This document shows, in pieces, positions 2-12,275 of a stretch of 64,000 bases of DNA. The stretch is from Patescibacteria group bacterium (GTDB taxonomy: Bacteria > Patescibacteriota > Minisyncoccia > Phycocordibacterales > UBA9973), in assembly GCA_038061755.1 (NCBI GenBank), contig JBBTYN010000004.1, positions 3,198 to 67,197 of the forward strand. The letters run 5' to 3'. A model generated the notes under the pieces. That model did not search any database, was not told where the DNA came from, and saw only the letters and a list, made by a program, of their open reading frames with translations. The position numbers and the translations under genes are program-made. Position 1 is the stretch's first letter, and each line of letters begins with the position of its first letter.

Positions 2-421
2 ACACAATCCGATCAAACAAATTATGGTGGAAACGCTGACCATCACAATCTGCACTATCGCCCGCATGCAAAAGAAGAAAGCAAAGAATTGGCTTTATGT
101 AGCGTTCTTTCTACTGACGATGTAAAACCTATTGCTCGCATGGTGTATACTGAAAAAAATTATGATCATAAGCGAGCATCACTTTTTCTTGTGGGTGAAA
201 TGTTTGGTAAAGTGCCAGCGTCGCTTCATGTTATTCTCGACGATGAAGACAGTCCAAATAGTGGTGGTATTGTTGTAGATGCCATTAGAGCTGCTAGAGT
301 TTTGATAGAAAAGAACGCAACAGAAAAAGCCACAGAACTCGGAGCCTCGCTTATGAAAGCACCTTTTAAACAATTATCTGAAGAAGAATCGTATAGAAAA
401 TTTTCTGAAATTTTGGGTTAG
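2..421 (+). CDS. Hypothetical protein, 5'-partial. The ORF stays open to the window edge (the ORF track starts it at TTG 89 only because of that edge). It is GC-richer than its surroundings.
   Basis: Frame 2 has no stop from nt 2 to TAG at 419-421. I see no recognisable motifs. GC is about 40% versus about 32% in flanking DNA. Confidence 0.4.
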   Translation, partial: TQSDQTNYGGNADHHNLHYRPHAKEESKELALCSVLSTDDVKPIARMVYTEKNYDHKRASLFLVGEMFGKVPASLHVILDDEDSPNSGGIVVDAIRAARVLIEKNATEKATELGASLMKAPFKQLSEEESYRKFSEILG

Positions 422-440
422 AATACACTAAAAGGTATTC

Positions 441-1658
441 TTATTCTTTGTTCTTAAGATTACGCCTTATCTCATGAAGATTATTTCCAATATAGCAAAA
501 AAGCCTGTAATAATATCCTAATGACATTTTTGAATCTTTAGCTTCTATTTTAAACTCTTGTGGTAGATGTTTTTTTTTAAAAAGTAATGAAATAATCTGG
601 TCAGGAGGCATGCGCTCGAGTTCATCCCAAAGAGCGTATCCTTTTATGAGAATGATACAGCGTGCAAGTCTGGTAGCGTATTTCTTAAGGTAGGCAAGTT
701 TATATTCAAAACTATGATTGTTTGAATAATATACCTTTCTAACTAATTGTAAGTATTCCACAGAACGTATAAATATACTTTCAATGTATTGTTCTTTTGT
801 TACTTTTTTATACTGTTCGTGTAATATATCTTTTCCATAGATACATAAACCTTTTGTCACATATTCTAAAACAAATTCTCTTGTGAAAAAAGAAAGGTCG
901 TTTTTTATTTCAGTATTGGTATAAATATGAAAATCAAGATTTTCAAAATATTTTTCAAGAAAAACAAGTAAAGGTGTAATATCTACCTTGTCATCCTTAA
1001 TGACAATAGTCATATCGGTATCATGTATGTCGGCCTTGTGTATTTTTTTGTAAATAGAACCATAAAGAAAAATACAAGTAATATTAGATGCACATGGAAA
1101 TTTTGAAATGTCAGCGCTAATTTTTTCTACAGCAATATTAACTAATCTATTTACCTGATTTACTGATTTAATAAATATATTATAGGCTCGCTTAAGTTCA
1201 GTTTTATTAAAAGTGATAACATTTAAGGCGTCCCGATAAGTATACCATTCTGCAGATTCAATCTTTTTATTTACATCATTCCAATCGGCAGATGTTGGAG
1301 CAAGCTTATTCTCTACGCTAAACACATTAATATATAATTCTTTAAATAGAGTATGTTTTTCATCTAGGTCATAGCTATAACTGTCTGTGGCACAAAGGTC
1401 AATATATTTTAGTTGATCATATTCAATTCCAACTTCTTCTTTTATCTCCCTAAAAGCTGCATCAATTTGGCTTTCTTCCGGTTCTAATTTGCCTTTTGGA
1501 ATCCAAATCTCACCATTACTATGCTTTATTAGAAGTATATAAACACAAAAAGTTTCTTTATCCATGTAGAATATAAAACCACCCGAGGAAACTTTCTTTA
1601 CTATTTCTTTTTGTAACCCAGTTTCTTTTTTAGATTTTTTCAACTTATTTTTTTTCAT
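441..1658 (-). CDS. Fusion protein: N-terminal NUDIX hydrolase domain plus C-terminal Pol-beta-superfamily nucleotidyltransferase domain.
   Basis: The Nudix box GKLEPEESQIDAAFREIKEEVGI is a perfect match to G-x5-E-x7-REUxEExGU. A downstream motif, hGS-x11-DTD (LYGSIYKKIHKADIHDTDMTIV), is typical of minimal/CD-NTase-like nucleotidyltransferases. A helical tail of about 180 aa follows. Confidence 0.6.
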   Translation of the reverse strand: MKKNKLKKSKKETGLQKEIVKKVSSGGFIFYMDKETFCVYILLIKHSNGEIWIPKGKLEPEESQIDAAFREIKEEVGIEYDQLKYIDLCATDSYSYDLDEKHTLFKELYINVFSVENKLAPTSADWNDVNKKIESAEWYTYRDALNVITFNKTELKRAYNIFIKSVNQVNRLVNIAVEKISADISKFPCASNITCIFLYGSIYKKIHKADIHDTDMTIVIKDDKVDITPLLVFLEKYFENLDFHIYTNTEIKNDLSFFTREFVLEYVTKGLCIYGKDILHEQYKKVTKEQYIESIFIRSVEYLQLVRKVYYSNNHSFEYKLAYLKKYATRLARCIILIKGYALWDELERMPPDQIISLLFKKKHLPQEFKIEAKDSKMSLGYYYRLFCYIGNNLHEIRRNLKNKE

Positions 1659-1797
1659 GAATGAATTATATCAATGAATCAAAGAAAGTAAATAGCTACA
1701 TATTGCTGAATTCAATAGCAATAAGTTAATATAGTAAATATATATTATTACTGATACAATCTTTATATGCCCAACGAACTCCAAAACCCAATTTCGT

Positions 1798-1846
1798 ACT
1801 AGCAAGGACAGTTCTTACTAGCAAGGACAGTTCTTGCTAGTAAGAA
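1798..1846. repeat. A 19-bp unit (ACTAGCAAGGACAGTTCTT) repeated twice in tandem, followed by its partial inverse. Together they form a hairpin with a 14-bp stem and the near-palindrome AGCAAGgAC-a-GTTCTTGCT.
   Basis: Direct reading of the sequence. It lies in the divergent promoter region between the NUDIX-NTase gene (minus strand) and ORF 1982 (plus strand). Confidence 0.8.
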
Positions 1847-1981
1847 AAACTGGACACATGGTTTCGTATACAAAAATTTAATCTAATAAGCCCTTGAAAT
1901 AATTTCGTGCAAAAGTTATAATTAGATCATTAGAACTAGAAAATATTGTATTTCAGTTATTATTTATTATAATAGATATAT

Positions 1982-2371
1982 ATGGAAAATTCACAACCAC
2001 AAGGGAAAGAAGGCGCTACATCAGATAAGGTTTTTAATAAAAGAAAGGTGTTTGCCGCAGAAGATAGAGCTAATTCATTAATTGAGCAAGCTAAATTTAA
2101 TGAAGCAATAGAAATCGTAGAACAACTTGAGGTAGAAGTGAACAATATGGTAATGCCTGACAGATTTAGTAAAACAGCAAAGCCTTCTGAGGGTGTATAT
2201 AGTTCCTTTAATGGTGGATTAAATGCTGCAATTTTAAAAGGTTTAACAGAGGATGAATACAAAAGACAAATTTTGTTAATTAATTTACGTGATATAAAAA
2301 ATAAAATTCTTCAGGCAATATCTGATCTTGACTCGGTAATAATAGATATTGAAGCGACAAAACAGGAGTAA
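1982..2371 (+). CDS. Hypothetical protein.
   Basis: ORF of 129 aa with no recognisable motifs. It is transcribed divergently from the NUDIX-NTase gene. Confidence 0.4.
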   Translation: MENSQPQGKEGATSDKVFNKRKVFAAEDRANSLIEQAKFNEAIEIVEQLEVEVNNMVMPDRFSKTAKPSEGVYSSFNGGLNAAILKGLTEDEYKRQILLINLRDIKNKILQAISDLDSVIIDIEATKQE

Positions 2372-2440: not shown

Positions 2441-2734
2441 GTGAGTAAAATAGAAAACAATCAAAATAGTTCTGGTCCGTGGTGGAAACCAGCGATGGAG
2501 ATACTGGGTGAAGTTTCGACATGGATTGTCGTGCCTATTGTGTTGGCATTAGTTTTTGGCAAAATGCTTGATGTGCGTTTCGGAACAAAGCCAGTTATAT
2601 TTTTAGTGTTTGCCGGAATTGGTTTTTTAGTCACTTGTTTTGGTATGTATAGGGTTGTAAAGAATTATATAAAAAAATTACAAGACATTAGTCCCGACAA
2701 AAGTCGGGATCTCGACAAAAGTCGGGAAATATAA
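2441..2734 (+). CDS. atpZ: AtpZ/AtpI-like small membrane protein; putative F0F1-ATPase-associated subunit.
   Basis: Two TM helices with the pattern W...G..LD.RFGTKP. It sits immediately upstream of atpB and uses a GTG start. Confidence 0.55.
   Translation: MSKIENNQNSSGPWWKPAMEILGEVSTWIVVPIVLALVFGKMLDVRFGTKPVIFLVFAGIGFLVTCFGMYRVVKNYIKKLQDISPDKSRDLDKSREI
2692..2727 (+). repeat. Two tandem 18-bp hairpin units (tcccgacaaaagtcggga / tctcgacaaaagtcggga) at the 3' end of atpZ. They encode the repeated peptide PDKSRDLDKSRE.
   Basis: Seen directly: a 6-7 bp stem, CCCGAC/GTCGGG, with an AAAA loop, present twice. Confidence 0.75.
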
Positions 2735-2737
2735 TAT

Positions 2738-3583
2738 ATGGAAAAGATATCTCAAGAAATTACACTTTTTGCCGAACCAATATTTCATGCTGGAAGTTTT
2801 ACTGTTACCAATGCTCTTCTAACTTCTTGGGTTGTTGTTGCTATTATTATAATTTTATCTTTCGTTTTACGTTCAAGACTTAAAACAGTTCCTGGTAAAT
2901 TGCAAAATATTTTTGAATTAATAATTGAAAATGCTCTTGGTCTTTGTGACCAAGTTACAAATAGCAGAGCTCTCTCTGTAAAAATTTTTCCAATCGCTAT
3001 ATCAGTTTTTTTCTTTATTTTAATTAATAATTGGTTGGGGATACTTCCTTTCGGTGGTTTTGGAATCATAGAAAAAAGCGAGGAAGGTCTGGCATTTATT
3101 CCATTTCTTCGTGGAGGTACAGCTGATGTAAATACCACAATCGCGCTTGCAGTAATGGCAGTTGTTGGGGCAAATGTCTTTGGTGTTTTTTCGATCGGCC
3201 TATGGAAAACTTTTAATAAATATGTTAATCTAAAGGTGCTCGGGCAAATATTTACAAAAATAAGAGAAGACAAAACTGTAATTATTGTAGCTCCAATCAC
3301 GTTCTTTGTTGGTTTAATTGAAATTATTGGTGAATTTGCAAAAGTTGCTTCGCTTTCATTTCGTCTTTTTGGAAATGTATTTGCTGGAGAAGTCCTTTTG
3401 GTATCGATGGCAGCCCTAGTGGCTTATATCGTTCCGATACCTTTTCTTTTTCTAGAATTACTTGTGGGAGTTATCCAAGCATTGATTTTTTCAATTTTAT
3501 TGGTGGTTTATTTTACTATTGGAGCTACGGACCATGATGAGCATGAATCTGAACACAAGAAACATGCAATAGCCACAGTTTAA
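2738..3583 (+). CDS. atpB: ATP synthase F0 subunit a.
   Basis: Conserved SLSFRLFGNVFAGE motif containing the essential Arg, multiple TM helices, and operon context. Confidence 0.9.
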   Translation: MEKISQEITLFAEPIFHAGSFTVTNALLTSWVVVAIIIILSFVLRSRLKTVPGKLQNIFELIIENALGLCDQVTNSRALSVKIFPIAISVFFFILINNWLGILPFGGFGIIEKSEEGLAFIPFLRGGTADVNTTIALAVMAVVGANVFGVFSIGLWKTFNKYVNLKVLGQIFTKIREDKTVIIVAPITFFVGLIEIIGEFAKVASLSFRLFGNVFAGEVLLVSMAALVAYIVPIPFLFLELLVGVIQALIFSILLVVYFTIGATDHDEHESEHKKHAIATV

Positions 3584-3647
3584 TTTATTATAAATTATTA
3601 GTCGAAATTATTAGCTTGATTAACCCGCTTTGCCGAGGCTTCGGTGA

Positions 3648-3899
<252 letters not shown>

Positions 3900-3910
3900 A
3901 ATTATTATTT

Positions 3911-4024
3911 GAAAATTTAAAATAGTTTCTTTCAAAAAGCAATCTATCTAGCAAAGCTTTGCTAGCGAACTGCTCGGCTCGTCAGCCTGCGCAAGGCTTT
4001 TCTTAAGAACTATTTTAAATTTTC
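3911..4024. repeat. A ~114-bp intergenic element bounded by perfect 17-bp inverted repeats (gaaaatttaaaatagtt / aactattttaaattttc). Inside it is the perfect 18-bp palindrome ctagcaaagctttgctag (3948..3965).
   Basis: Direct reading of the sequence. It fills the atpE-atpF intergenic region. Confidence 0.7.
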
Positions 4025-4035
4025 AAAAACTACCC

Positions 4036-4482
4036 ATGGATTCAATTATTTCAACATTTCATATAGATTGGAAAATTATTATTGCTCAAGCAATCAATTT
4101 CGGAGTTGTTTTTGTTGTTTTATATATTTTTGCTCTTAAGCCACTTTCCAAGCTGATGGTAGAACGTAGTGAAAGAATTTCTAAAGGAATTGATGATGCA
4201 AAAAAATCTAATGAATTGTTGCAACAATCTGCCGAAGAATATAAACAAAATACAATAAAATTAAGACAGATAGCAATTGATTCTCAAAAAGAACTTACTA
4301 AAGAGTTAGATCAATTGAGAGTAAAAAATCTAGATAGAATAAAAGCAGATAATAATGAATGGACAAAAAAGAGAGCGGAGCAGATGGAAATTGATAAAAA
4401 AGTTTTGGTTGAATCAGCAAAAAACGAACTCGTTACACTTGCGATGCTAGCCGTTAAAAAAATTATGGCAGAAAAAAAATAA
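4036..4482 (+). CDS. atpF: ATP synthase F0 subunit b.
   Basis: N-terminal TM helix followed by a long charged coiled coil, plus operon position. Confidence 0.85.
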   Translation: MDSIISTFHIDWKIIIAQAINFGVVFVVLYIFALKPLSKLMVERSERISKGIDDAKKSNELLQQSAEEYKQNTIKLRQIAIDSQKELTKELDQLRVKNLDRIKADNNEWTKKRAEQMEIDKKVLVESAKNELVTLAMLAVKKIMAEKK

Positions 4483-4500
4483 GTAAAAACAAATAAAATA

Positions 4501-4911
4501 ATGGCAAAAATTTCTCCCAAAAATATAGCAGAAGCAGTGTATGAGGCAACAAAAAACAAGTCGGGACAGGGCTTGGCGTTTGTACTTAAACGCTCGGCTC
4601 AAATAATAAAAGAGAAAAGAATGTTGGGTAAGTCTAATGAAGTCTTAAGTGCTTTGCAAAATATTTTTGATAAAAAAACTGGTACTGTTAGAATGAAAGT
4701 AACAACTACGAATAATATAGGGATAGAGGAGAAAAGTAAATTAGAGAGTGAAATTAAAGAAAAATATAAGGCGCAAATTGTGATAGGTGAATTTTTTAAA
4801 AAAGAAGAATTATTAGGCGGAATGAAGATTGAGGTTGGAGATGAAATATTGGATAATACATACAAAAATAAACTTCAGAAATTAGAAAAATTTTTAATAC
4901 AAGAAAAATAA
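4501..4911 (+). CDS. atpH: ATP synthase delta (OSCP) subunit, short form.
   Basis: C-terminal motif ELLGGMKIEVGDEILDNTYKNKLQKL matches the delta C-terminus, plus operon position. At 136 aa it is shorter than typical delta subunits. Confidence 0.75.
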   Translation: MAKISPKNIAEAVYEATKNKSGQGLAFVLKRSAQIIKEKRMLGKSNEVLSALQNIFDKKTGTVRMKVTTTNNIGIEEKSKLESEIKEKYKAQIVIGEFFKKEELLGGMKIEVGDEILDNTYKNKLQKLEKFLIQEK

Positions 4912-4920
4912 AATAAATAT

Positions 4921-6415
4921 ATGTCAAACCATATCGTAGAAATTTTAAAAAAAGAAATAGAAAATTTTAAAACAGAAATTAAGGTTGAAAAAGTGGGTAA
5001 AGTATTAGAAGTTTTTGATGGCATTGCAAAAGTTTCTGGACTTTCAGATATTAAATCTTCTGAAATGGTAACTTTTTTGAATGGTGAGACGGGGGTGGCT
5101 CTTAACTTAGAGGAAGATACAGTCGGGGTAATTATTTTCGGGGAATTTTCTGCTATTAAAGAAGGGGATGAAGTAAAAGCTACTGGAAAAATTCTTGAAA
5201 TTCCAGTTTCTGATAGTATTTTAGGGAGAGTAGTAAATGCCATTGGTGTTCCTATTGATGGCAAGGGCGCTATAAAAGCCGGAAAAAACGGTTTGCAAAC
5301 TTATCCAATTGAAAAAGTGGCTTCAGGTGTTATTACTCGCTTATCTGTCTCAGAACCAGTTTCTACTGGTATAAAGGTTATTGATGCGATTATTCCTATT
5401 GGTCGTGGGCAACGCGAACTTATTATTGGTGATCGCCAAACTGGAAAAACCGCAATCGTTATTGATACAATTCTTAATCAAAAAGGTCAAGATATGATAT
5501 GCGTGTATGTCTCTATTGGTCAAAAAGATTCTAAATTGAGAAAGATTGAAGCGCGATTAGAAGAAGGCGGAGCGATGGCTTATACAGTTATCGTATCAGC
5601 TGGCGCTTCAGAAGCTGCTTCACTTTCTTATGTTGCGCCATATACAGGAGTAACTATTGCGGAATATTTTATGGATCAAGGTAAAGACGTTTTGATTATT
5701 TATGATGATCTTTCTAAACACGCTGTCGCTTATCGTGAAATTTCTCTTTTGCTCCGTCGTCCACCAGGTCGCGAGGCATACCCAGGAGATGTTTTTTATT
5801 TGCATTCTCGTTTGCTTGAACGCGCTTGTCGTAGAAATAAAGAATATGGCGGAGGTTCCATCACAGCTTTGCCTATTATTGAAACACAGGCTGGCGATGT
5901 GTCAGCATATATTCCAACAAATGTTATTTCTATTACTGATGGACAAATTTTTCTAGAAACTGATCTTTTTTATAAAGGTATTAGGCCTGCGGTAAATGTT
6001 GGTCTTTCTGTTTCTCGTGTTGGTTCTAGTGCTCAGATTAAAGCAATGAAAAAAGTGGCTGGGACATTAAAACTCGATTTAGCGCAGTTTCGTGAGCTTG
6101 AAGCATTTGCTCAATTTGGTTCTGATCTTGATGATGCCACCAAGCGCCAGCTTGAACGCGGAAAGAGAGCGGTAGAAGTATTAAAACAGCTTCAATATGC
6201 GCCAGTAAAAATTGAACACCAAATTGTCACGCTTTATGCTCTTACTAAAGGTTTTATGGATGATGTAGCAATTGATAAAATAAAAGAATTTGAACAAGGA
6301 TTCATGGAATATAGTGAACGTAATGCAAAAGTTTTTTATAAACAAATTGCTGAGAAAAAAATGTGGGATGATAAAGGCGAGGAGGAATTAAAAAAAGCAA
6401 TTGAGGATTTTAAAA

Positions 6416-6429
<14 letters not shown>
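4921..6429 (+). CDS. atpA: ATP synthase F1 alpha subunit.
   Basis: Walker A GDRQTGKT and the conserved alpha-subunit core. Confidence 0.95.
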
Positions 6430-8849: not shown

Positions 8850-9296
8850 ATGTCAAAACAATTAAAACTTAAAATAGTAACTCCAGAACGTCTCGTCTTA
8901 GAAGAAATTGTAGACCAAGTAAGTTTGCCGACCACTCTTGGTGAGATAACAGTTTTGCCAGACCATATCTCTTTGATTACTGGTCTTGTGTCTGGAGATG
9001 TTGTTGCGTTCATAAACGGTGAGCATGTGCCAATGGCTGTTGTTGGTGGATTTGTGGAAATAAAGAAGAATAAAGAAGACCAAACAGAAGTTGCTGTACT
9101 AGCAGACTTTGCTGAACATATTACTGAAATTTCAGATATTGCAATAGAGAAAGCAAAAACTCGCGCGGAAGAGTTGAAGAAGTTGATGGAAAATAAAGAA
9201 CATGTGGACTTTGAACACTTTGAAGCTGAACTCGAACGCTCACTTACTCGTGTAAAAATTGCAGACAAATGGAGAACTAGGAAGTATAGGAAATAA
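8850..9296 (+). CDS. atpC: ATP synthase F1 epsilon subunit.
   Basis: Starts MSKQLKLKIVTPERLV, a beta-sandwich plus C-terminal helices. I chose ATG 8850 over the upstream in-frame ATG 8781 of the ORF track. Confidence 0.85.
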   Translation: MSKQLKLKIVTPERLVLEEIVDQVSLPTTLGEITVLPDHISLITGLVSGDVVAFINGEHVPMAVVGGFVEIKKNKEDQTEVAVLADFAEHITEISDIAIEKAKTRAEELKKLMENKEHVDFEHFEAELERSLTRVKIADKWRTRKYRK

Positions 9297-9339
9297 ATTT
9301 ATATTGAGTTATATTTTAAAATTGAGTAGAATTAGGTGA

Positions 9340-9540
9340 GTGAAAAAGGGAAAATTAAAATTTAAAAAAATCATTAAAGATAGAATAGAAAGATCGTGTG
9401 TTGTTTGTGGTAAAAAAATTAAAATTATTTTATACAATGATTATTCATATAGAGGCGGACATTATTTTGCGTTTGGGGACAAAAAACCTAAAGACCCTAA
9501 AAAAGAATATTGGGAATGTTCAAAATGTTATAAAAATTAA
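9340..9540 (+). CDS. Small zinc-ribbon protein with two CxxC pairs.
   Basis: CVVCGKK...CSKCYKN in a 66-aa ORF with a GTG start. Confidence 0.4.
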   Translation: MKKGKLKFKKIIKDRIERSCVVCGKKIKIILYNDYSYRGGHYFAFGDKKPKDPKKEYWECSKCYKN

Positions 9541-9556
9541 ATCTAATTAATAATTT

Positions 9557-10270
9557 ATGTCTAAATTTTATGTGGTGGCGACACCGATAGGAAATATGGG
9601 AGACATTACACTCCGAGCTATCGAAACACTAAAAAGTGTGGATTTGATATTGTGTGAAGATACTCGAGAGACTAAGAAGATTTTAGATAAATATGGTATC
9701 AGTAAAATAACTATGAGTTATCCATCCGATGATGTAATCGGAAAAAACTACAGACAAAGTAAGCTTGCAAAGATTTTAAGATTACTAGAAGAAGGGAAAA
9801 ATTTAGCATTAGTTTCAGACGCTGGTACACCAGGGATTTCTGATCCGGGAGCTTTACTTGTTTCTCAAATCAAAGAGCATTTTAATCCAGCAAGGGGAGT
9901 CCTTGCTGGAAAAGTGCAAGTTATTCCAATTCCGGGTCCTTCAGCCGTTATCGCTGCGCTCTCGGCCTCAGGATTACCAATTCATGAATTCACTTTTCTA
10001 GGTTTTTTGCCACACAAAAAAGGTAGGGAAACATTATTTAAAGAAATTTCGCAAGCAAAAAGAACGATGGTATTTTATGAATCTCCGCATAGAATATTAA
10101 AAACGCTAGAATCTCTTATAAAATATACCCCAAATAAAAAAGTCTGTATTGCTCGAGAATTGACAAAAATTTATGAAGAATTTAAAACAGGTACACCTGT
10201 TGAAGTTTTGGAATATTTTCAAAAGAATAAAGAGAAGCAAAGAGGGGAGTTTGTTGTTATAGTTTCTTGA
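9557..10270 (+). CDS. rsmI: 16S rRNA (cytidine1402-2'-O)-methyltransferase; tetrapyrrole-methylase fold.
   Basis: N-terminus LYVVATPIGNMGDITLRAIETLKSVDLILCEDTRETKKIL is diagnostic of RsmI. Confidence 0.85.
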   Translation: MSKFYVVATPIGNMGDITLRAIETLKSVDLILCEDTRETKKILDKYGISKITMSYPSDDVIGKNYRQSKLAKILRLLEEGKNLALVSDAGTPGISDPGALLVSQIKEHFNPARGVLAGKVQVIPIPGPSAVIAALSASGLPIHEFTFLGFLPHKKGRETLFKEISQAKRTMVFYESPHRILKTLESLIKYTPNKKVCIARELTKIYEEFKTGTPVEVLEYFQKNKEKQRGEFVVIVS

Positions 10271-10273
10271 AAA

Positions 10274-10317
10274 GCCAAAGGGCATCTTTGACACACTTGT
10301 CAAAGATGCCCTTTGGC
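10274..10317. repeat. Nested palindromic element, copy 1, variant A: gccaaagggcatctttgaca-cact-tgtcaaagatgccctttggc. It lies between the convergent genes rsmI and priA.
   Basis: Perfect 20-bp arms. Sits between two converging genes. Confidence 0.9.
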
Positions 10318-10322
10318 AGGAT

Positions 10323-12275
10323 TTACAACAAATCTTCGGGATCTACAAATATTTCAAAAGATGATGGAAGAGAAAGAAGTTTAGCTAGAAGATTTTTATC
10401 TATAGAAGAATTAGTGGAAATTTCTGGAAGAGACCATTCTTGAGTATTTATTTTTATTAATGTGTTTGTTACATATTTATTTTTATTTTTAGTTATAAAT
10501 CCACTGAAGATTTCAGGATTGTATTCTTTAAAAAGTTCTTTTAATGTTTTTTTAGCTTCAATAGACTCTTCTTTATCACCAAAATAGGTAATTTTTATAA
10601 AACGTTTATATGGTGGATAGAATAATTTACGTCTATCTTCTAATTCTTCTCGCACAAAAGATAATAAATTTCCTGCTTTAATTGCAAGGATTGCTGGATC
10701 ATTCTCATTTTTTATTTGGATGATAAGTAATTCTTTTGTGTTATTAATTATTGAAAGTACAATTTGGATAATTTTTTCACTCATTTTAAAATTTGGTATG
10801 CTCCAAAGTGAATCAAAAGAAGCGATAATTGAAAGTGACACTTTGTTTTTTAAGTAGAAAAATGCCATTTCTGTACCTATTAATATTGACCCCTGATTAT
10901 CTTCAAATTCTTTTATGATTTTTTTGGCACCACTTTCTGTTTTTGCAGATTCTTTGTCTAATCTAAAAATTTTTGTTTTTGGAAATTTATTTTTAATTTC
11001 TTCGAAAACAGTTTCTGTTCCTATTCCAAGAGGCATTAAATTCCAACTTCCACAAGTTGCACAAGCAATGTCTCCGTCTATATTTATTTCACATCTATTA
11101 CATACGAACGCCCTTTTTTTATTTTGGTGTGACATATAAAGTACTAATGGTGCTCCACATTTTTCACAGCTCATTGTTTCATTGCAGTCTTTACAAAGAG
11201 TCATAGTTGCTAAACCTTTCCTTAATGAGAAAATAAAAATACTTTTTTTATTTTCTAATGTAGATTTTATTTCTTTTATACTTTCATCATTTAATATTTG
11301 GAATTTTTTATTACCTCTCCCCCCATCGCCTGGTAATTGGCGGGCAGGCTTACCTAAAACTTCTATTTTTCCATCAAAATCAATTCTAAAAGATAACGGA
11401 TATAAGGGATTTAAATTATCCATATCTTTTCTTCCAATTGTCTCGTAGCGTAATATTTCATCAGCTATAATAAATCTAGCATTTATTTTTGAAGCATAAA
11501 TCTCTACAAAAACTCTTAAATCAATATGTGTTTTCGTAATTATTTTATAAATATTAGAATTTTCGTGTTCTAAAATTATAGTGCCAATATTTTTTTTAGG
11601 AATAGACAAAAATGGCGGAGTGCTGATGATTAAGACTGGGTGAGTGGAATTTATTATTTTTTCATAAGTTATTAATTTTTTTTTTGCATTTATTCCACCA
11701 TGTATAGAAAAAGTAAATTTTTCAATTCCTTTTGATAATTGAAGAGTAAATTTTTCTATATCAAACTGAGTTGGTAAAACCAAAAAAATAGATTTATTTC
11801 TTGCAAAAGATTCTCGAACAAGTGTTTTGTATATAGATATGCGATCTTGTAATGGATATTGAAATAATAATTTTTCAGATTTTAGATTTTGTTGTTTTTC
11901 AAGCGAGGTAAAAGGTGGGGTAAGGTGCATTATCTTATCATATTTTTCTATAAAAATATTTGGAATTAATGAAGCAATGGCACTGTTTTTATTTTGGGCA
12001 AAATATTTACTTGTATCAAAAATTGTATCAAGAAATTCTTTTAAAAAAAAAGAACTTCCTTTGTCTTTTGTAACTTTTTTTAAGTTAAAATCCATATTTT
12101 TTACATTGCTTTTTTCCCCTTTTAGTTCTTCACTAGAAGTAACTAGCGCCAGGGTTTCCTTGTTTCTTATTGGAACAGATACAATATTTCCAACAGCTAT
12201 GTTCAAACTGGTAAAATAAGTTAAATCACCTTTCAATATACATTTTTTTAGTGGTATGACGGATATTATTTTCAT
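10323..12275 (-). CDS. priA: Primosomal protein N' (PriA)-like. The Cys-rich zinc region and C-terminal lobe are intact, but the Walker A and DEEH motifs are degenerate.
   Basis: Cys-rich region CKDCNETMSCEKCGAPL...CNRCEINIDGDIACATCGS and lobe-2 motifs are present. No GxGKT is seen, and the DEEH position reads IILEHENS. Confidence 0.7.
   Translation of the reverse strand: MKIISVIPLKKCILKGDLTYFTSLNIAVGNIVSVPIRNKETLALVTSSEELKGEKSNVKNMDFNLKKVTKDKGSSFFLKEFLDTIFDTSKYFAQNKNSAIASLIPNIFIEKYDKIMHLTPPFTSLEKQQNLKSEKLLFQYPLQDRISIYKTLVRESFARNKSIFLVLPTQFDIEKFTLQLSKGIEKFTFSIHGGINAKKKLITYEKIINSTHPVLIISTPPFLSIPKKNIGTIILEHENSNIYKIITKTHIDLRVFVEIYASKINARFIIADEILRYETIGRKDMDNLNPLYPLSFRIDFDGKIEVLGKPARQLPGDGGRGNKKFQILNDESIKEIKSTLENKKSIFIFSLRKGLATMTLCKDCNETMSCEKCGAPLVLYMSHQNKKRAFVCNRCEINIDGDIACATCGSWNLMPLGIGTETVFEEIKNKFPKTKIFRLDKESAKTESGAKKIIKEFEDNQGSILIGTEMAFFYLKNKVSLSIIASFDSLWSIPNFKMSEKIIQIVLSIINNTKELLIIQIKNENDPAILAIKAGNLLSFVREELEDRRKLFYPPYKRFIKITYFGDKEESIEAKKTLKELFKEYNPEIFSGFITKNKNKYVTNTLIKINTQEWSLPEISTNSSIDKNLLAKLLSLPSSFEIFVDPEDLL

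Follow-up and report, generated by a model that had tools for sequence, protein, structure and literature searches.

A Nudix hydrolase fused to an MNT/ANT-type nucleotidyltransferase in Patescibacteria, a probable reduced form of a histidine phosphatase-Nudix-nucleotidyltransferase module

A single ATG-initiated open reading frame (ORF) of 405 amino acids, joining a Nudix hydrolase domain to a Pol-beta-type nucleotidyltransferase (NTase), was found near the start of the 64,000-nucleotide stretch of patescibacterial DNA analyzed here (hereafter the window; contig JBBTYN010000004.1). An earlier reading made from the letters alone (the sequence-only reading) had proposed one polypeptide with a canonical Nudix box, a downstream hGS-x11-DxD core and a helical C-terminal domain. 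All of these elements were recovered, and this is a real fusion with both halves intact (Table 1). The identical protein (P0001) occurs on three other contigs and 14 clusters of full-length homologues were found at 41-82% identity. Two AlphaFold models, one of the whole protein (mean predicted local distance difference test, pLDDT, 80; predicted TM-score, pTM, 0.51) and one of residues 161-405 (pLDDT 83, pTM 0.75), divide the chain into four parts, namely a Nudix alpha/beta sandwich, a linker helix, a beta-alpha-beta NTase core and an all-helical domain. The mutual orientation of the two halves is uncertain because of the lower pTM of the whole protein compared to the C-terminal half alone. 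Both catalytic centres are predicted to be intact and conserved. In relatives, the same two parts are accompanied by a histidine phosphatase, and the window lineage keeps only the Nudix-NTase fusion, probably a reduced, two-domain form of this conserved module.

Table 1. Features of the Nudix-NTase locus, in window coordinates.
Feature	Position	Strand	Basis
Nudix-NTase fusion ORF, complete, 405 amino acids	441..1658	-	ORF call, Pfam, homologue search
Nudix domain, residues 18-150, Ap4A-hydrolase/DIPP/Dcp2-like	1209..1607	-	Pfam NUDIX, Foldseek, PDB sequence matches
Nudix box GKLEPEESQIDAAFREIKEEVGI, residues 56-78	1425-1493	-	GX5EX7REUXEEXGU satisfied at every position
Long linker helix connecting the two halves, residues 152-185	1104..1205	-	AlphaFold secondary structure
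Pol-beta-type NTase core, residues 188-283, MNT/ANT clade	810..1097	-	Profile and Foldseek; Pfam Polbeta
Catalytic motif Y199-G200-S201-x11-D213-x-D215 (YGS-x11-DTD, residues 199-215)	1014-1064	-	Family alignment
D242, predicted third carboxylate, first residue of strand 242-247	933..935	-	Family alignment
C-terminal HEPN-like (KNTase-C-like) helical domain, residues 288-404, with K326-Y327-x2-R330	447..797	-	
Probable promoter TTTACT-16 nt-TATAAT, extended TG	1665..1692	-	Consensus scan; conserved upstream of orthologues L017, L014, L018
Myo-inositol-1-phosphate synthase gene, 3' end, cut by the window edge	2..421	+	Pfam Inos-1-P_synth E=2.8e-9
19-nt tandem repeat, three copies, forming a 17-nt palindrome	1793..1849	.	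Divergent intergenic region

The Nudix half is matched by Pfam NUDIX over residues 33-146 (E=2.4e-11, 44 bits against a cutoff of 21). Conservation of the Nudix box was followed in 16 aligned rows, where G56, E62 and E74 are present in all 16, R70, E71 and G77 in 15, and E75 in 14. The box and the alpha/beta/alpha fold (Foldseek E=1.7e-9 to the Ap4A hydrolase 3i7u) place this half in the Nudix superfamily. The nearest structures after 3i7u were the Ap4A hydrolases CT771 and NUDT2, followed by Ndx1 and mycobacterial MutT1, with RppH and Dcp2 also matched, and the nearest solved proteins by sequence were DIPP1, Dcp2 and Ap4A hydrolases. Ap4A hydrolases, DIPP, Dcp2 and RppH cleave dinucleoside-polyphosphate, cap-like or polyphosphate linkages. 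The N-terminal half is predicted from its sequence to be a catalytically intact Nudix pyrophosphohydrolase with these enzymes as its nearest kin, which is a resemblance and not an assignment of substrate. None of the curated NCBIfam Nudix models (MutT, RppH/YtkD, NudE, NudC, MutT1 and others) reached its equivalog cutoff, all 15 matches being far below and the best of them, YtkD, scoring 30 bits against 154.

For the NTase half, an exhaustive profile search of 1.84 billion proteins returned 135 representative clusters at E<=1e-3, most of them stand-alone proteins of about 230-245 amino acids, and 76 of these were aligned. None of the 76 members departs from G200, D213 or D215, and S201 occurs in 73. 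Position 242 is acidic (D or E) in 70 of the 76 and D242 aligns in the profile match with the glutamate of 'FEFHIL' in AF0614. Its strand, which comes after the second helix, is presumably where AadA-type enzymes bear the third carboxylate or catalytic base. The half thus has the Pol-beta superfamily pattern hG[GS]-x9-13-Dh[DE]h, a third carboxylate on the next strand and the alpha-beta-alpha-beta-alpha-beta core; the third acid and the fold, either of which the sequence-only reading would have taken as fatal if lost, are both in place. Pfam Polbeta is below its cutoff for the single sequence (E=0.0098) and matches 38 of the 76 family members, so that the NTase assignment rests on the 76-sequence profile together with the fold.

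Searched against solved structures, the 76-sequence profile found an MNT-like protein (9xbd_E, 2e-8), AAD(9) (4e-5), AF0614 (6e-5), HI0073 (5e-3) and HalB (0.035). Foldseek ranked AAD(9) first (E=7.5e-6, TM-score 0.50), followed by AadA, the Exiguobacterium NTase-like protein 3c18, LinB and MNT antitoxins. CCA-adding enzymes, poly(A) polymerases and terminal uridylyltransferases (TUTases) gave E>=0.2 and probabilities of at most 0.2. The earlier suggestion of a CD-NTase-like or MNT-like enzyme therefore survives in its MNT-like branch, which both profile and Foldseek favour, and falls in its CD-NTase-like branch (Foldseek E>0.1): the C-terminal half belongs with the MNT/ANT clade and is not cGAS/DncV-like.

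The helical domain carries the nearly invariant K326-Y327-x2-R330, and Y302, Y327 and R307 are found in 64, 66 and 50 of the 76 members respectively. Taken alone, it has no sequence match in Pfam or PDB and no family model covers it; sequence searches of the PDB and Pfam with the C-terminal half likewise found nothing. An active HEPN RNase was ruled out by the lack of a conserved Rx4-6H in the 76-member alignment, where position 302, four residues after R/K298, is tyrosine in 64 members and histidine in only eight. On the strength of the profile and fold matches, the missing Rx4-6H and a helical domain without family match, we read this half as an MNT-clade NTase with a non-catalytic HEPN-like bundle. 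Sequence and models together predict that the NTase is catalytically intact, has the Pol-beta fold and belongs to the MNT/ANT clade, with the two-domain build of ANT(3'')(9), AAD(9), KNTase and LinB.

The conserved tyrosines bear on protein nucleotidylylation. MNT antitoxins AMPylate a tyrosine of the HEPN protein with which they are paired; similarly, the NTase might target a tyrosine in its fused HEPN-like domain or in a partner protein, while the Nudix domain and the phosphatase modulate the nucleotide donor or the modification. MNT antitoxins and HEPN toxins are indeed among the best matches of the two sub-domains, Y302 and Y327 are highly conserved, and MutT1, a Nudix and histidine-phosphatase protein, is reported to act on phosphoproteins (PMC11784022, PMC12407098). 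However, the helical domain has neither the Rx4-6H nor a toxin context, the match to ANT enzymes extends across both fused domains (about 180-190 residues), and a tyrosyl-AMP phosphodiester can be removed by neither a Nudix enzyme nor a histidine phosphatase. We consider this explanation improbable.

The neighbourhoods of homologues, a survey of which the sequence-only reading had recommended, revealed a conserved partnership of histidine phosphatase, Nudix and NTase, in some cases with GNAT. Hidden Markov models (HMMs) built from our own alignments were scanned across all fetched loci (L numbers) and combined with the called genes, and six arrangements were found. The Nudix-NTase fusion stands alone in the window and in close orthologues (L005/6, L014/18, L015, L017 and L019), and in L001-4 it follows a histidine-phosphatase (His_Phos_1-like) gene after 4 nt. 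Histidine phosphatase, Nudix and NTase occur in this order as separate overlapping or abutting genes in L016 (Ca. Uhrbacteria) and L028/29, where the phosphatase HMM matches the 277-amino-acid protein with E=2.5e-79. In L033/34 the order is histidine phosphatase, Nudix and an NTase-GNAT fusion, and in L032 Nudix and NTase-GNAT. A Nudix gene precedes a histidine phosphatase-NTase fusion in L007-10, and the short contigs L011-13 and L022 show histidine phosphatase followed by NTase. All three components of the module occur together in L001, L007, L016, L028 and L033, and three coupled genes were found in three divergent lineages, namely L016, L028 (operon at 2663-4729) and L033 (operon at 2978-5511).

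Fusions are seen at every junction of the module. Nudix and NTase are fused in the window clade, in P0012-15 and, as a separate case, in P0040 and P0042, histidine phosphatase-NTase fusions are represented by P0018 and P0024, and NTase-GNAT fusions by P0034 and P0047. In a rough neighbour-joining tree of the NTase domain, the Nudix fusions fall into two or more separate clades, and the histidine-phosphatase and GNAT fusions are also in separate places. In L007 and L024, a different Nudix subfamily occupies the same position of the module (window-Nudix HMM E of about 1e-4, matching the box only), which argues for non-orthologous replacement. Every lineage of the inner NTase subfamily with visible upstream DNA has an adjacent Nudix gene, histidine-phosphatase gene or both, and the distant relatives P0050 and P0060 have neither as neighbours. 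The repeated independent fusion and the tight operonic coupling are strong evidence that the histidine phosphatase, the Nudix enzyme and the NTase serve one process.

The partner phosphatase retains the RH...SPxxR...H(G/A)Q signature of branch-1 histidine phosphatases and forms a family of its own with 65 clusters, all organism-named members of which come from taxa of the Candidate Phyla Radiation (CPR). Its nearest solved relative is yeast YKR043C (E=6e-4), by which a specifically MutT1-like phosphatase was ruled out. Some of the phosphatase genes contain one in-frame stop, a TAG in the L001 gene (5112-5996; also in L002-L004) and a TGA in the L016 gene (4675-5517; also in L021 and L025-L027).

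Several other observations were made at the loci of relatives. In L024 (4447-5486; also in L023), the gene of a YtkD-like Nudix enzyme precedes what is left of an NTase, HMM positions 60-228 only, without the GS/DxD half, and the pair looks like a decayed copy of the module. L028 encodes at 1846-2661 a 271-amino-acid protein in which a cytidylyltransferase fold like that of RfaE domain II is combined with a TadA/ComEB-like deaminase domain. Its gene stops 2 nt short of the histidine phosphatase-Nudix-NTase operon, and upstream of it are a 498-amino-acid ORF without a recorded Pfam match and an aromatic-lyase gene. L033 carries YcaO, nitroreductase-type and 2-oxoglutarate-Fe(II) oxygenase genes at 9069-11511, a cluster resembling those for ribosomally synthesized and post-translationally modified peptides. 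It lies about 4 kb from the histidine phosphatase-Nudix-NTase-GNAT operon and on the opposite strand, with secDF genes in between.

Outer members of the NTase family have partners distinct from those of the Nudix/histidine-phosphatase subfamily. As P0079, P0104 and the L031 locus (945-1694) show, they are fused or adjacent to alpha/beta-fold hydrolases (DUF1749/Hydrolase_4; Peptidase_S9). These hydrolases and the GNAT fusions would suit a resistance-type detoxification, in which an enzyme of ANT-like build (ANT-GNAT in relatives) would modify a toxin of the aminoglycoside, lincosamide or nucleoside type encountered by these bacteria. Antibiotic nucleotidyltransferases are the best structural matches and bifunctional ANT/AAC resistance enzymes exist. 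Such a role is nevertheless very improbable. The protein is matched by none of the ANT or Lnu family models and offers no drug-binding residues that could be mapped, the gene is not on mobile DNA, and no part in this kind of resistance is known for Nudix enzymes or histidine phosphatases.

The Nudix matches and the deaminase fusion lying 2 nt upstream of the L028 operon raise the question of RNA-end processing or repair. Here the Nudix half would turn 5'-triphosphate or Np(n)-capped ends to monophosphate, the phosphatase would heal a phosphorylated end, and the NTase would extend a 3'-OH with its HEPN-like bundle binding the RNA. In NCBIfam, both Nudix subfamilies score best or nearly best with YtkD and RppH, which are models of RNA pyrophosphohydrolases, and all of these scores are far below cutoff. 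RppH and Dcp2 are among the structural and sequence matches of the Nudix half, and HEPN folds are typically RNA-directed. On the other hand, the Nudix matches are non-specific, the RNA-directed nucleotidyltransferases named above are poor structural matches, no ligase, kinase or Hen1 partner occurs at any locus, and we know of no RNA-end phosphatase within the histidine-phosphatase family. We regard RNA-end processing as unlikely.

Phage defence was considered in the light of fold, profile and gene context. The CD-NTase structures CdnE and CdnC gave Foldseek E-values of 0.16-0.26 (probability 0.18-0.25), a CD-NTase appeared in the profile search only at E=0.027, and the PADLOC matches were weak or partial, the 'Cyclase' model being covered over 70 of its 322 positions (E=2.4e-4). 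No effector gene is adjacent in the window, where the neighbours are the inositol-phosphate synthase, an ATP synthase operon and hypotheticals; in relatives, the partners are histidine phosphatase, Nudix and GNAT. Neither the window nor the relatives' loci have the operon with a Cap effector, often joined by Cap2/Cap3 or HORMA/TRIP13, that marks a cyclic oligonucleotide-based antiphage signalling system (CBASS), and the neighbours are housekeeping genes at every locus examined. A CD-NTase/CBASS-type interpretation, the CD-NTase-like part of which came from the sequence-only reading, is rejected on these grounds. A defence island or mobile element has no support either, given the housekeeping neighbours, the PADLOC results and the phage and plasmid collections, in which the NTase half had no match and only weak Nudix-only matches were found.

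The synthesis and turnover of a nucleotide signal, also proposed in that reading, gained nothing specific in its support and is kept as a rival. In such a system, styled after Hailong HalB or CBASS, the NTase would make a nucleotide or oligonucleotide signal which the Nudix enzyme and the phosphatase degrade or trim. Two distant NTase family members, P0067 (618 amino acids) and P0080 (536 amino acids), are fused to Ion_trans_2 channel domains (P0067 also to DUF2306), a pairing of channel and MNT-clade NTase that recalls the Hailong HalA/HalB defence system. These fusions and the weak HalB similarity count for a signal (PMC13434031). Set against them, HalB and the CD-NTases are clearly poorer matches than the ANT-type enzymes, none of the Nudix-associated members has an effector or sensor gene next to it, and Nudix enzymes do not cut the phosphodiesters of cyclic or linear oligonucleotides. 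The small CPR genomes, the housekeeping neighbours and the lack of copies in the phage and plasmid collections speak in the same direction, and we find a signalling role distinctly unlikely.

The fusion is rare. A search of 5.8 billion proteins for matches to the whole protein gave no more than 19 clusters (at 90% identity), and all source names among them are CPR taxa (Ca. Paceibacterota and Ca. Taylorbacteria). Among 185,579 species, each represented by one genome, three loci were found (Paceibacterota, Taylorbacteria and Uhrbacteria), and a metagenome scan gave eight loci. With this distribution, the fusion is neither a chance product nor the common housekeeping enzyme that would have told against the sequence-only reading.

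The surroundings of the gene are largely as first described. The adjoining 'GC-rich gene fragment' proved to come from a myo-inositol-1-phosphate synthase gene, of which the window contains the 3' end. It has 39.5% GC compared to 26-32% in the Nudix-NTase ORF, and the two genes are convergent. This neighbour also occurs at the orthologous loci L005 (7209-8255) and L006. A functional tie between the two genes is unsupported, as they converge and their adjacency is limited to close orthologues and not seen in L001, L007, L016, L028 or L033. The best PDB sequence matches of the Nudix half are diphosphoinositol-polyphosphate phosphohydrolases, whose pairing with an inositol-phosphate synthase neighbour is probably a coincidence. 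On its other side, the gene is transcribed divergently from a hypothetical 129-amino-acid ORF (1982..2371, +) across the repeat region. The palindrome of the 19-nt direct repeat is 94% complementary over its 17 nt (TTCTTACTAGCAAGGAC / GTTCTTGCTAGTAAGAA). The repeat does not occur upstream of the L005, L014, L015 and L017 orthologues whereas the proximal promoter is conserved, and it was therefore rejected as a part of the system. Further along the window, an ATP synthase operon (2441-6429, +) encodes a small membrane protein followed by the a, c, b, delta and alpha subunits, a housekeeping neighbourhood.

We favour a cellular small-molecule or nucleotide-metabolite pathway, be it housekeeping, salvage or detoxifying, over phage-defence signalling. 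Because the same two parts accompany a histidine phosphatase in relatives, an undescribed small nucleotide-handling pathway is suggested rather than cyclic-nucleotide defence. Our preferred reading, to which we give a probability of roughly 0.45, is that the protein combines two enzyme activities within a pathway whose one substrate is phosphorylated and nucleotide-linked, and that it is a reduced form of the three-part module. D213, D215 and D242 would bind two Mg2+ ions, and, by analogy, S201 together with K326 and R330 of the helical domain might hold the triphosphate of the nucleoside triphosphate. K326 and R330 would correspond to the Arg/Lys pair of the AadA helical domain. An acceptor hydroxyl in the inter-domain cleft would attack the alpha-phosphate, giving an acceptor-O-linked nucleoside monophosphate (acceptor-O-NMP) and pyrophosphate, and the many conserved basic residues suit an anionic, phosphorylated acceptor. 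The Nudix half, and in relatives also the phosphatase, would catalyze adjacent steps on the same substrate, in which a pyrophosphate link is cut and the exposed phosphate is then removed.

A number of points weigh against this preferred reading. The NTase and the Nudix half cannot be a simple forward and reverse pair because a Nudix enzyme needs a pyrophosphate bond, which the O-NMP product, with its phosphodiester only, does not offer. The order of steps proposed above is a conjecture, the substrate cannot be named from sequence, and the YtkD and RppH matches of the two Nudix subfamilies would also suit an RNA substrate. MNT-clade enzymes elsewhere do other things: HalB makes protein-primed oligonucleotides (PMC13434031), and MNT/HEPN enzymes act on protein tyrosines, two of which (Y302 and Y327) are highly conserved in this family. 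Position 242 is asparagine in P0003 and P0005, homologues of 78% identity with all other motifs intact. No histidine-phosphatase homologue was found by tblastn in the 64-kb window, nor is there one beside the close orthologues. The in-frame stops of the two other lineages lie at different positions, with conserved coding in the same frame on both sides, and could reflect an early pseudogene, read-through or assembly consensus. The L001 stop recurs in several samples; L027 is 100% identical to L016 and so is no independent sequence. With such stops in two lineages, the third partner may be dispensable.

A wider claim, which we hold as doubtful, is that the histidine phosphatase-Nudix-NTase(-GNAT) set is a CPR-specific pathway that makes and trims an undescribed nucleotide-linked molecule. 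It has two versions. In the first, the set would be a non-homologous counterpart of the GlmM/GlmU logic, in which a mutase or phosphatase, an acetyltransferase and a nucleotidyltransferase work together; here, a Pol-beta-fold enzyme with a phosphate nucleophile would form a nucleoside diphosphate-linked compound that the Nudix half polices. In the second, it would produce a protein- or small-molecule-primed nucleotide signal, by analogy with Hailong.

Targeted full-text literature searches gave no description of a Nudix domain fused to an MNT/ANT-type Pol-beta NTase or of the three-gene module. What is new is the domain architecture and the conserved CPR module, as both halves belong to well-known superfamilies. 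Repeated independent fusion or adjacency of a phosphatase, a pyrophosphohydrolase, a nucleotidyltransferase and an acetyltransferase is classic evidence for a shared pathway, and the setting is one of ultra-small, host-dependent bacteria with a poorly understood nucleotide economy. The identity of the substrate would add a reaction or small pathway to CPR metabolism and show what role the ANT-like scaffold plays beyond resistance to antibiotics. For a rare family with no named substrate, the practical value is modest at present.

Finally, the protein was compared with five groups of known systems. ANT(3'')(9)/AadA, AAD(9), ANT(4')/KNTase and LinB share with it the two-domain build of an NTase core and a C-terminal helical domain. 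It differs from the ANT and Lnu enzymes in its low identity (10-16%), in being fused to Nudix and part of a histidine phosphatase-Nudix module, and in its chromosomal location in CPR bacteria rather than on resistance elements. None of their family HMMs matches it: Pfam Adenyl_transf, KNTase_C and DUF4111 and the NCBIfam ANT models found nothing in the protein, with three of the 76 family members touching Adenyl_transf weakly. The MNT-HEPN pairs (HI0073/HI0074 and MntA-HepT) are alike in having an MNT-type core, by profile and fold, and a HEPN fold, here C-terminal, whereas in the window protein these parts are fused, lack a conserved Rx4-6H and do not form a two-gene toxin-antitoxin arrangement.

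Hailong HalB and the CD-NTases share the Pol-beta fold, HalB giving a weak two-domain match and some distant family members being fused to ion channels, but their matches are much weaker than those of the ANT enzymes and the window gene has no effector partner or defence context. NadM-Nudix, a precedent for joining a transferase to a Nudix domain, unites NMN (nicotinamide mononucleotide) adenylyltransferase and ADP-ribose pyrophosphatase in one protein, its Nudix half controlling the level of the nucleotide product (PMC9503650). Its NTase is a HIGH-motif Rossmann-type enzyme whereas that of the window protein has the Pol-beta fold and no CTP_transf_like match; as the folds differ, the likeness is one of logic and not of homology. 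Mycobacterial MutT1 consists of a Nudix domain and a histidine-phosphatase domain (PMC11784022), the same pairing as in the module, and is a good structural match to the window Nudix half. It differs in having no NTase, the CPR phosphatase is not specifically MutT1-like, and the window lineage has no phosphatase. Standing outside the ANT, Lnu, CD-NTase, MNT-HEPN toxin-antitoxin and NadM-Nudix families, the window protein can best be likened to an O-nucleotidyltransferase of the ANT type that carries an Ap4A-hydrolase-like Nudix domain.

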